64,000 bases of DNA from Scenedesmus sp. PABB004 (Eukaryota): positions 186,001-250,000 of the forward strand of contig JABVCE010000023.1 in assembly GCA_014905635.1 (NCBI GenBank), read 5' to 3'. A model generated the notes under the pieces. The model had not been told where the DNA came from. It did not search any database and saw nothing but the letters and a program-made list of their open reading frames with translations. The position numbers were made by a program, and so were the translations under genes. Of this stretch, positions 54,603 to 64,000 are shown one piece after another (position 1 is the first letter of the stretch; the number at the start of each line of letters is the position of its first letter).

Positions 54603-57600
54603 ATGGCGCGCAAGGCGTTCGTGGTGGACACCATCGCCGGCGCCATCGCCCCGGCGCCGGAGCAGCGGGTGCGGCGGCGCGGCGGGCCGGCGGCGCCGGA
54701 GCAGCGGGCGCGCGAGCGATCTCGCGCCGACGCGCTGCCGCGCTCCGCGACCAGGCGGCGTACGCTGACTACATCGGCCGCGATGACAGCGGCGCCATTG
54801 CCGCGTTCCTGGACGACCCGAGCGCGGCCATCCTGCAGGCGCGCGAGCAAGCGCGCCGCGCCGCCGCGCGGCGCGCGCGTTTGACCGGCGGCGCTGCTCA
54901 CGCCGCCGCGCGCAGGTCAGCATCGCCAAGTCGGCGGGCGGGCAGCTGCAGGTGCGGCTGACCAATGCGCCCGACTTCCCGGCGGCGTGCGTCTATCAGG
55001 TGCGCCGTCATGGCAGCGGCCGCGGCCGCGCCGGCACGCGCCGCTGCCGCTGCCGCCGGCAACGCGCCGCGCGGCCGCCGCAGCTGACGCTGAGCAAGGT
55101 GCGCCCCGGGCCGCTGGCGCTGGCGGACGTCCCGGGCGGCGTCGCGCTGTCCACGGTCGTCAACTCGCCGCTCAGCAGCCTGCTGCACTCGCTCAGCGCG
55201 GTCTTCTGCCCCCTCCTCGGCGTCGAGCTGGGCGGCGGCGGCCAGCAGCAGCGCAGGCCGCAGCCACCGCAGGTGGAGCCCAAGCTGGCGGAGATGCTGC
55301 TGGCCGTGCAGGCGGGCCTGGGCAAGGCGGTGCGCGGCGCCGGGCAGGTGCGGCGCGCTGCGCTGCGCGGACGGCGGTTGGCGGCAGCGGCAGCGCGCGC
55401 CTGCACCCGCGCTGCGCCCCCGCCGCCCGCGAGCCCCGCCGCCACGCGCCCCGCCGCCGCTCGCCCGCAGTCGGCGGTCGGCGGCGCTGCGTCGGGCCTG
55501 CAGGAGATCCTGACGCCCCTGGACGAGCTGCAGTTCTGGGCGGATGCCGCCGCCGACACCACGGCTGCAGGCGCGCGCCGCCGCCGCCGCGTGCCGTGCG
55601 CGGCGCAGCTGCCGGCGCCGGCTGAGCCCCGCCGCGCCTGCCGCAGGCGCGCCGGCCAGGGCGGCGGCGCGGCAGGTGCTCGACCAGCTCGACGCGCTGC
55701 GCCAGCCGCTGCTGGGCCTCGCCGAGGGCCGGCTGGAGGGCGAGTGGGAGGGCGCGCTCGAGCTGATGGGGCGCGTCGGCGACGCCCTGCGCCAGGTGCG
55801 TGGGCGTGCGCGCGGCGTGCCGCGTGCGCCAGCTGGGGCGCGGGCACGTGCCGGCCTGCACGCCCGCAGACCTCCCCGGCCCTGCCCCCGACACCACGCA
55901 GGTGTGGCCGCTCAAGGCGCCGCCGTCTGGCTGGGCGTACCCGCAGCGGCGGATGCACCACCTGCTCGGCGTGATGGGCATGGCCTTCGCGACCTTTGTG
56001 CAGGTGAGGGCTGTGTGCCCGGCGCCGCGCTGGCCCGCGGGCGTCGCGCCAGGGCTGCACGCCCGCGCTGCCAGGCTGCTGAGCCGCCGCCCGCCGCCTG
56101 CCTGCTGTGGCCCACCGCTCCGCGCAGCGCAAGCTGGCGGGCGCTGACCTGTGGCGGACCTCCTTCACCCTGCTCAAGCCCAGCCTCATCGCGTCGGGGC
56201 AGCTGCTGGCGGGCTGGGCGGCCGAGGCGCGCACGCTCACGTCGGACTGGGCCGCCGGCCTTGACGGCGCGGGGCGGCGCTGGGAGGGGCCGCAGGCCGC
56301 CGACGCCTACGTGTCGGCGCTCCAGGAGCGCATTGAGCAGGTGGGGGTGCGGCCCGTGCTGGCTGGCAGCGGGCGGCCAGCAGCTCCGCCTGCGCCCACG
56401 CTGGCTGCGCCGCGCCGGGCTGGCGCAGGTCTACGGCCTGCGGGAGCTGCACGAGGAGCTGGCCGCGCTGCTCAGCCAGGAGGAGGCGGCGGCGCTGGGC
56501 CTGGGCGACGTGCTGGCGCCGTTTGCGCAGCTCGCGGCGCTGCACGTGAGCGAGTTCACCGCCCCCGCGTGGGCCGGCGCGGCAGCGGAGCACGAGCGGC
56601 GGCTGGAGGGCGTCGAGGCGCGCATCAGCGCAAAGCTCAGGGAGCTGTTTGGTGCGCGGCGCGCGGTGCCCGGCGGCGGCGCGGCGCGCGGTGCCCGGCG
56701 GCAGCGCGGCGACGCGCAGCCCTTGCCTGGGGGGCTGGCTGACCGGCGCACTGCTGACCGCTGCACCGCCGCCGTGCAGCCACTGTCATCCTGCCCAACA
56801 TGGCCCTCGCCATCGGCCAGCAGGCGGCCGGCGGCGCCGGCGCCGGCGCCGGCGGGGCTGCGGCGCACCCGCAGCAGCTGTTCCAGGAGCTTCGGCAGTA
56901 CAGCCGGCTCCTGGCGCGGCCGCGGCTGGCGGCGGTGCTGCAGGCAGAGCTGGCGGCGCTGGCCAAGCAGGTGCGTGACCTCGCTGCACACGCACGTGTG
57001 CGGGTCGGGGGCGTGCCCCAAGCCAGCAGTCGGCGCGCGGGGGTGGCTGACGCGCCGCCACGGCGCCGCCCCGCCGCCTCGGTGCCGGGTAGATCGACTC
57101 GTACCTGGAGGCCCTGCAGGGCGAGTTTGACCGCCAGCTCGACGGCCACGGCGGCTGCACTGCCAGCACCGGTCGGCTGATGCACGGTGCGGTGGCCGGC
57201 GCCGTCGGCCCGCGGGCGGGCCGCTCGGAGGGCTGCCGCCCCTGCGCCGCGCGCCACGGCCGGCGTCCCGTGCCCGGCCGCTGCCCCGCTTGCAGGCGTC
57301 GCGGGCAAGGTCTCGTGGGCCGTGCAGTGCCAGGCCAAGGCCACGAGCGTGGCGGAGCTGCTGCAGCTGTTTGTGGGCCGTGACGCGGCGCCGCCGTCGG
57401 CCGAGGGCGAGGCCGGGCGGCCCGCAGCCGCGGCGCTGCGCGGCTGCCTGGGCGCTGCGGCGGCGTTTGTCAAAACGCTGGAGGAGCACAAGCGCGAGCT
57501 GTTCCGGGGCTGGCAGGCGCGCAGACCGGCGGCGGCGGCGGCGGCTGCGGCGCGCGCAGCCCGCGCGGGCATCACGCGTCTCACGCGCTGGCTTGGCGCT

Positions 57601-63600: not shown

Positions 63601-64000
63601 GCGCTCCAAGCTGCCCGACAACCTCAAGCAGATGTTCAGGCGCGGCGCGCGCGCGCGCGCGGGGCGCCGCCGCCGCTGCGGCAGGGCCCGCGCCGGACTC
63701 CCGGCCCGCGCGCGAGCCCCGCCGCCGCCGCGCCCGCGTCGGCCGCCAGGCCCATCGCCATGTCGGCGCCGGACAACGGCCTCATCGCCGAGGTGCTGCT
63801 CGCGAGCGAGGGCTTTGGCGGCGCCAAGGCGCTCGCGGCCAAGCTCGTGTCGCTGTTTGCCCTCGCGGGCGAGGGCCTCTCGCGGCAGGCGCACTACGAC
63901 TGGGGCCTGCGCGCGCTCAAGACCTGCCTCGGCGCGGCGGGGCGCCTGCTGCGCCAGGTTTGTGTGTGTGTGTGTGGGGGGGGGGGGCAGGAGGGCGTGG
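54603..64000 (+). CDS. DHC1b: Cytoplasmic dynein-2 (IFT retrograde) heavy chain, 5' part (tail, linker, AAA1); continues beyond window
   Basis: [35 protein letters not shown] (dynein-2 tail), [51 protein letters not shown]-loop [56 protein letters not shown]. 33 introns counted by hand. Confidence 0.95.
58915..59030. repeat. Intronic pentanucleotide microsatellite (CCGTG)n grading into (CCGCG)n
   Basis: About 13 CCGTG units followed by about 7 CCGCG units inside a DHC1b intron. Confidence 0.9.

Follow-up and report, generated by a model that had tools for sequence, protein, structure and literature searches.

Nearly a quarter of the introns modelled in a 64-kb stretch of the genome of Scenedesmus sp. 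PABB004 (contig JABVCE010000023.1, positions 186,001 to 250,000; hereafter the window, whose own coordinates are used throughout) begin with GC instead of GT. Across seven genes and 64 introns we counted 49 GT-AG and 15 GC-AG introns, the latter making up 23% (exact 95% confidence interval 14-36%). GC-AG introns average 1.2-1.3% in published surveys (PMC6310983; PMC3033335), so that the share in the window is about 20-fold above the norm (P = 1.4e-15 for 15/64 against a background of 1.2%); an earlier note made from the letters of this DNA had likewise claimed an excess, relative to a eukaryotic norm of about 1%. When the count is limited to introns supported by homology or by a deposited protein it becomes 13/52, and 13/64 remain as GC-AG if the two soft cases at 55571 and 63233 are set aside. 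All 15 GC donors lie in flanks that are otherwise strong. The reading we favour, at a probability of roughly 0.78, is that these are U2-type introns produced by GC-biased T-to-C change at position +2, a change tolerated only in otherwise strong donors.

Eight GC donors in DHC1b

At the end of the window lies the 5' part of DHC1b, which encodes a dynein-2 heavy chain. A tblastn search with the dynein-2 heavy chain of Trebouxia (P0081, 1926 aa) gave a colinear match of residues 39-1887 over 54,919-63,957. The gene was modelled with a spliced protein-to-genome aligner that combines BLOSUM62, codon log-odds and donor and acceptor matrices, the latter trained on a set of 20 GT-AG introns only. All eight GC donors that the earlier note had placed in DHC1b were returned exactly with each of six reference proteins; lowering the GC prior from 0.2 to 0.01 left all eight in place, and at 0.001 seven remained, with 55571 lost. 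We counted 32 introns between 54669 and 63749, where the note had given 33.

For these donors the margin given in Table 1 is the drop in score on excluding every GC donor within 200 nt. The 77-nt intron at 54839 has a length that is not a multiple of 3, its sole internal GT would give an intron of 37 nt, and Trebouxia is the only reference that supplies homology there. No GT occurs in the first 45 nt of the intron at 57517. The junction at 59344 is gapless or has one 1-residue gap in all six references, and at 63640 GC alone fits together with an AG acceptor. At 62898 the exact donor among adjacent in-frame GCs was set by the site matrix (11.5 half-bits); homology support is weaker for this donor, 54839 and 55571 than for the other five. 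The longest intron of this part of the gene, 58903-59097 (195 nt), contains a pentanucleotide microsatellite, with about 12 units of GCCGT and then a series of GCCGC.

Exons and introns can be well separated in this DNA because of their contrast in composition. Each 2-kb bin of the window is 71.6-83.3% GC, and intron interiors contain 5.9% A, 45.5% C, 40.4% G and 8.2% T; codon position 3 is 94% GC and codon position 2 is 49% GC. An ab initio model run per gene region recovered 28/32 introns of DHC1b and called no GC donor falsely. Chaining over the whole window, which ran through both strands and yielded 173-296 'introns', was discarded in favour of the per-region runs. Alignment by similarity alone, also rejected, placed five of the eight claimed donors exactly but excised low-complexity inserts through chance GC..AG pairs, so that similarity alone is insufficient in such DNA.

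As a control, other dinucleotides were allowed as extra donors in the 10-kb DHC1b region and the gain in score over a GT-only model was recorded. GC gave the largest gain (400 half-bits), followed by CG (283), CC (177), GA (168), GG (137) and AC (87), with TC at -5. Most pseudo-donors lay no more than about 25 nt from these same DHC1b introns. Introns without a usable GT therefore exist at these sites and GC is their best-fitting start; where the junction is gapless and the acceptor is AG, no other start fits.

GC donors in other genes

In the BASS transporter gene two of five introns are GC-AG. The donor at 50910 (ARFK|VPLYLINN) is exact at the splice point in five homologues, with one 1-residue gap 7-12 residues upstream, and that at 50466 (IIIMC|SQKNLP) is gapless in 4/5. 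Three further GC donors, two in the sulfate-binding protein (SBP) gene and one in the adjacent senescence-domain gene, are demanded by an NCBI protein labelled as from the same strain (P0154, sbpA), which is identical at 854/854 residues to the spliced translation of the window and requires 13 introns, including those with donors at 15717, 14906 and 12211. The public annotation thus already uses these GC donors, and the expectation that default gene predictors would mis-model such genes is contradicted in part, although P0154 does join two neighbouring genes. By leaving out these three introns P0154 also lends indirect support to their removal from the mRNA. In UNC-50 the exons flanking the donor at 52634 encode positions 141-189 and 190-221 of PF05216, each at full length and abutting exactly.

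Run over the gene regions of the window at a GC prior of 0.01, the ab initio model returned 101 introns, 20 of them GC, and all eight GC donors that the earlier note had listed outside DHC1b were among these. Those in BASS, SBP, the senescence-domain gene and UNC-50 are upheld by homology, P0154 or Pfam, as described above; the eIF5 donor at 3662 comes from the ab initio model, and the donor at 27659, in a 'small gene', is weak. The model around 27659 scores 234.5, the lowest of six; it lacks a Pfam match and runs over an exon modelled on the minus strand. All 16 sites in the note's list, DHC1b included, read AG|GC on the strand it assigned.

GC donors are confined to strong flanks

The GC donors mirror the local GT consensus, as had been claimed. 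At +3, +4 and +5, the GC donors have G in 15/15, C in 14/15 and G in 15/15, as compared with 47/49, 34/49 and 47/49 in the GT donors, C at +4 being found in 48/64 donors overall. The exonic side differs: AG occupies -2/-1 in 15/15 GC donors versus 23/49 GT donors (Fisher p = 1.5e-4), which bears out the claim that every GC donor follows exonic AG. GCG or GAG is found at +3 to +5 in 15/15 GC and 41/49 GT donors. We defined a strong-flank class as AG at -2/-1 plus GCG or GAG at +3 to +5; it holds 17 GT and 15 GC donors, while the remaining donors comprise 32 GT and no GC. The earlier proposal that GT has given way to GC at every donor with perfect exon-side pairing is overstated, since 17 donors of the strong class still read GT.

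In other respects the two kinds of intron are alike, with median lengths of 110 nt (GC) and 122 nt (GT) and GC contents of 87% and 86%, respectively. All 15 modelled GC introns start with GC and finish with AG, and a boundary moved by 1-2 nt no longer leaves an AG acceptor. U12-type introns carry a rigid donor box directly after the first dinucleotide. This identity was rejected, as the GC donors read GCGCG or GCGAG and lack a U12 donor box.

Gene-model artefact and sequence error

Several observations count against our reading, and some of them would favour a gene-model artefact in which true splicing uses nearby GT donors, or coding inserts are retained, and GC donors have been fitted into DNA where GC is everywhere. 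The 10-kb DHC1b region holds 2108 GC dinucleotides, and the motif AGGCGCG occurs 28 times on the plus and 43 times on the minus strand of the window (71 in total); as it is common by chance on both strands, the motif by itself is no evidence, and homology carries the support. Without the codon and site terms the aligner places spurious GC 'introns' in low-complexity inserts, and distant references bring in GC donors where the alignment is poor (54209, 54448, 56227, 56824, 57033 and 60745), which we do not trust. The ab initio GC donor at 17598, in RPL23a, is false by homology: two references (P0376 and P0380), the only clean ones in a set made up mostly of mis-predicted proteins with spurious tails, define a single 478-nt GT-AG intron, 17441-17918, which the model had split with a false 13-codon exon. 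Since that call is refuted, the other additional ab initio GC donors (6428, 25029, 28842, 36441 and 42550) rank as candidates only, and the ab initio calls at 3662 and 27659 are less safe. Two DHC1b donors have GT alternatives, namely a 64-nt GT intron, 55596-55659, in place of 55571, and a 51-nt GT intron, 63278-63328, in place of 63233, the latter together with a 15-residue insert in the otherwise invariant AAA1 motif. Non-GC dinucleotides also bridge the same introns, so that the dinucleotide was identified by the top score, together with the AG acceptor and what is already known of introns. DHC1b itself supplied the training set for the codon and site models, and a matrix that rewards AG steers the choice among neighbouring in-frame GC donors and builds in part of the 15/15 AG; this does not apply to the nine junctions that gapless or near-gapless alignment pins to the nucleotide (57517, 59344, 60332, 63233, 63640, 50910, 50466, 15717 and 14906). 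Finally, the GC donors are read here from genomic sequence and protein comparison, and the sample is 64 kb only.

Against an artefact, models with GC donors beat their best GT-only rivals by 14.7-133 half-bits in DHC1b and by 31-72 half-bits in BASS and SBP, and gapless junctions fall within highly conserved motifs. Furthermore, retention of 10 of the 15 GC-AG introns, whose lengths are not divisible by 3, would break the frame, and three of the donors are used by an independent public annotation. On this evidence we regard an artefact as very improbable. Less credible still is that T was misread as C at the donors during base calling or assembly, an idea for which nothing specific speaks: 15 independent sites would all need to be hit at +2 of a strong-flank donor, the exons translate undamaged, including the 854/854 identity to the deposited protein, and the same kind of donor occurs in a contig from another organism, described below.

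Origin of the GC donors

We infer that the GC donors derive from GT donors by mutation. Under extreme GC pressure, in introns of 86% GC and 8% T, the T at +2 would repeatedly be replaced by C. The C would survive only where the other positions fit the local consensus AG|GYGCG (-2 A, -1 G, +3 G, +5 G), and in such strong donors pairing with U1, and later with U6, would presumably suffice without the +2 pair. Compensation by an otherwise strong donor is the usual picture for GC-AG introns. At an unconstrained intron site C would be expected in about 85% of C+T cases, as compared with 47% at +2 of the strong-flank donors and 0% of the weaker donors, which fits graded selection against GC-biased substitution that is weak only at optimal donors.

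A metagenome scan for relatives of the BASS gene gave one confirmed locus (L001) among 492 pattern matches, too few to polarise GT-to-GC change. This BASS orthologue, on a contig of 66% GC, has one GC-AG intron among nine (5195-5373, AG|GCAAGC) and shares three BASS intron positions with the window. Its GC donor is GT at the homologous position in the window, so that GT/GC exchange does occur among relatives. As a further point against our reading, the direction is not polarised by this comparison, and the two BASS GC introns of the window lie at positions without an intron in L001. That last feature would also be expected of recent insertions of an introner-like mobile element carrying a GC donor, and introner-derived introns of the dinoflagellates Symbiodinium and Polarella are described as mostly GC-AG in a review (PMC11282704). 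We compared the 15 GC introns of the window with this in mind. Pairwise identity among them (mean 0.611, maximum 0.766) was similar to that between GC and GT introns (0.599, 0.785) and among GT introns (0.595, 0.769), with shuffled sequences at 0.56. Second copies in the window were all low-complexity matches, 70-81% identical, with no near-identical copies among them, and lengths vary from 76 to 163 nt. The GC introns are thus not members of a repeat family detectable in the window, and an introner origin seems very unlikely.

A change in the splicing machinery itself (the U1 5' end, the U6 ACAGAGA box or U1C) could have the effect that +2 is read loosely and C at +4 is paired, leaving GC neutral. 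Canonical U1 would not pair with C at +4, the base found there in three-quarters of the donors (local consensus GYGCG), and GC makes up nearly half of the strong-flank donors. GC is found in 0/32 of the weaker-flank donors, so +2 T still matters. The first 11 nt of U1 in Aureococcus and Micromonas are reported as identical to the consensus, a fully canonical 5' end despite abundant GC-AG introns (PMC3033335). We therefore consider altered machinery unlikely. An Rfam scan of the 64-kb window gave no matches and no small nuclear RNA. A related and similarly doubtful idea is that the 5' splice-site code of this chlorophycean lineage has drifted to AG|GYGCG, of which at most five or six positions could pair with canonical U1, with co-evolved U1, U6 or U1-associated proteins, for example by pairing at +4 C. 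If that were true, +2 would be almost neutral in strong donors, GC-AG introns would have been free to reach a quarter of all introns, and the lineage would offer a natural system for how a spliceosome loosens the GT rule. Mutation pressure against graded selection remains the account we prefer.

Gene content of the window

The window is nuclear DNA, and a GC content above 70% is tabulated for Scenedesmus sp. PABB004 (PMC12571836). Its closest named protein matches (Tetradesmus, Monoraphidium and Raphidocelis, 78-86%) indicate a scenedesmacean chlorophycean. Genes were mapped by Pfam scans of segments with high coding potential (Table 1). In the retinoblastoma-family gene about 15 introns were modelled, with two candidate GC donors (25029 and 25850) called ab initio.

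Table 1. Modelled GC-AG introns and genes of the window.
Feature	Coordinates	Strand	Length (nt)	Phase	Margin (half-bits)	Remarks
DHC1b GC-AG intron	54839..54915	+	77	0	63.9	
DHC1b GC-AG intron, probable	55571..55646	+	76	1	14.7	weakest DHC1b case
DHC1b GC-AG intron	57517..57612	+	96	0	27.5	junction gapless in 4/6 references
DHC1b GC-AG intron	59344..59455	+	112	0	40.1	margin versus GT 59374
DHC1b GC-AG intron	60332..60418	+	87	0	80.8	gapless in 6 references
DHC1b GC-AG intron	62898..63013	+	116	0	133.3	margin versus any GT model
DHC1b GC-AG intron	63233..63328	+	96	0	25.0	within AAA1 motif; gapless in 6 references
DHC1b GC-AG intron	63640..63749	+	110	2	41.5	QMF R|PIAM; gapless in 6 references
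BASS GC-AG intron	50767..50910	-	144		43-46	5 homologues
BASS GC-AG intron	50314..50466	-	153		31-34	margin versus GT 6 nt upstream
SBP GC-AG intron	15612..15717	-	106		47.7	gapless in 4/5 homologues; used by P0154
SBP GC-AG intron	14770..14906	-	137		69-72	gapless in 5/5 homologues; used by P0154
Senescence-domain gene GC-AG intron	12109..12211	-	103		46.3 (ab initio)	required for P0154 match
UNC-50 GC-AG intron	52511..52634	-	124		54.6 (ab initio)	
eIF5 GC-AG intron	3662..3824	+	163		91.8 (ab initio)	ab initio only; length not a multiple of 3
'Small gene' GC donor	27659..27905	+			15.4 (ab initio)	unverified candidate
eIF5	2.0-4.6 kb	+				Pfam scan
Senescence-domain gene	11.9-14.0 kb	-				Pfam scan
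SBP	14.4-16.3 kb	-				Pfam scan
RPL23a	17.3-18.5 kb	+				Pfam scan
zf-MYND gene	in the window					Pfam scan
Retinoblastoma homologue	21.4-27.6 kb (21386-27610)	-				Pfam RB_A and RB_B on separate exons
BASS transporter	49.8-51.8 kb	-				Pfam scan
UNC-50	52.4-53.9 kb	-				Pfam scan
DHC1b, 5' part	from ~54.6 kb (54669..63957)	+				Pfam scan; 6 references; 32 introns modelled, 24 GT-AG and 8 GC-AG

Some observations concern the annotation of these genes and of their relatives. The deposited protein P0154 (Pfam Senescence and SBP_bac_11; 11851-16292, minus strand) joins the SBP and senescence-domain genes through a 336-nt intron, 14348-14013; as SBP homologues end before that intron, the public annotation appears to have fused two genes by mistake. 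In a Monoraphidium minutum SBP model (P0160), conserved residues just upstream of the position of the 15612-15717 junction are lost, as would be expected if a predictor had missed a GC donor there. Four RPL23a-like predictions (P0248, P0257, P0280 and P0298) have the conserved N-terminal exon followed, past the position of the first RPL23a intron of the window, by tails rich in Arg, Ala and Gly; these may be intron read-through, a mis-annotation in other, possibly GC-rich, genomes.

Two tandem arrays were also found. The first, at 30072-32760, has a period of 672 bp and at least four copies of 97-100% identity, and lies in the least GC-rich part of the window. The second, at 35275-39300 on the minus strand, has a period of 901-906 bp and four to five copies, up to 100% identical, and holds repeated segments of high coding potential (147 and 55 codons) without a Pfam hit.

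Comparison with known systems

The excess of GC-AG introns is a described phenomenon of GC-rich algae. In the figures given by Iwata and Gotoh 2011 (BMC Genomics 12:45; PMC3033335), GC-AG introns reach 39.6% in Aureococcus anophagefferens at 69.5% GC, 22.2% in Micromonas pusilla at 65.9% GC and 7.7% in Chlorella sp., and the origin of this algal excess is termed an enigma there. The frequency in the window is accordingly high, as the earlier note held, but not exceptional, since published GC-rich algae reach equal or higher fractions. Like those algae, the window combines high GC with a GC-AG share far above 1% (23% at 72-83% GC); unlike them, it represents a chlorophycean lineage of still higher GC, through 64 introns of one window rather than a genome, and the restriction of GC donors to strong flanks is shown in the present window.

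Emiliania huxleyi provides a second parallel. In the curated set described by Feldmesser et al. 2014 (BMC Genomics 15:148; PMC4028052), GC donors account for 56% of 241 junctions, a ratio of about 60/40, and ab initio models are said to under-call them. It too is a GC-rich alga, and its GC-AG junctions were forced by transcript mapping (PMC4028052). GC is the majority donor there and was established with expressed sequence tags and RNA-seq, whereas GT is the majority in the window, where the donors were read from genomic sequence and protein comparison. Annotation may hide such introns elsewhere: major non-canonical junctions (GC-AG or AT-AC) number 496/8,831 for M. pusilla and 19/67,746 for Monoraphidium neglectum in annotations listed in the PMC6310983 supplement, and the latter count may be an under-call. 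Our literature search on GC-AG introns in Scenedesmus and its Sphaeropleales relatives found no paper.

The introns of the window resemble the introner-derived introns of dinoflagellates in that many of the latter have GC-AG borders, according to the review cited above (PMC11282704), and differ in having no detectable repeated intron family. They also resemble the U2-type GC-AG introns known from plants and animals, with GC at +1/+2, an AG acceptor and an otherwise strong donor. Donors in plants and animals follow a consensus of the GTAAGT type. The window differs from them in its flank, GYGCG, and in that GC-AG introns are about 20-fold commoner.

What is new here is therefore the lineage and the split between flank classes. 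A Scenedesmus-like chlorophycean with extreme GC joins the short list of algae in which GC-AG introns are common, and gene finders for such genomes need GC donors whose weight depends on context. The split itself, 15/32 in strong flanks versus 0/32 in the others, supplies a detail that the papers cited here leave open in their accounts of GC-AG introns, and it fits mutation pressure opposed by graded selection.

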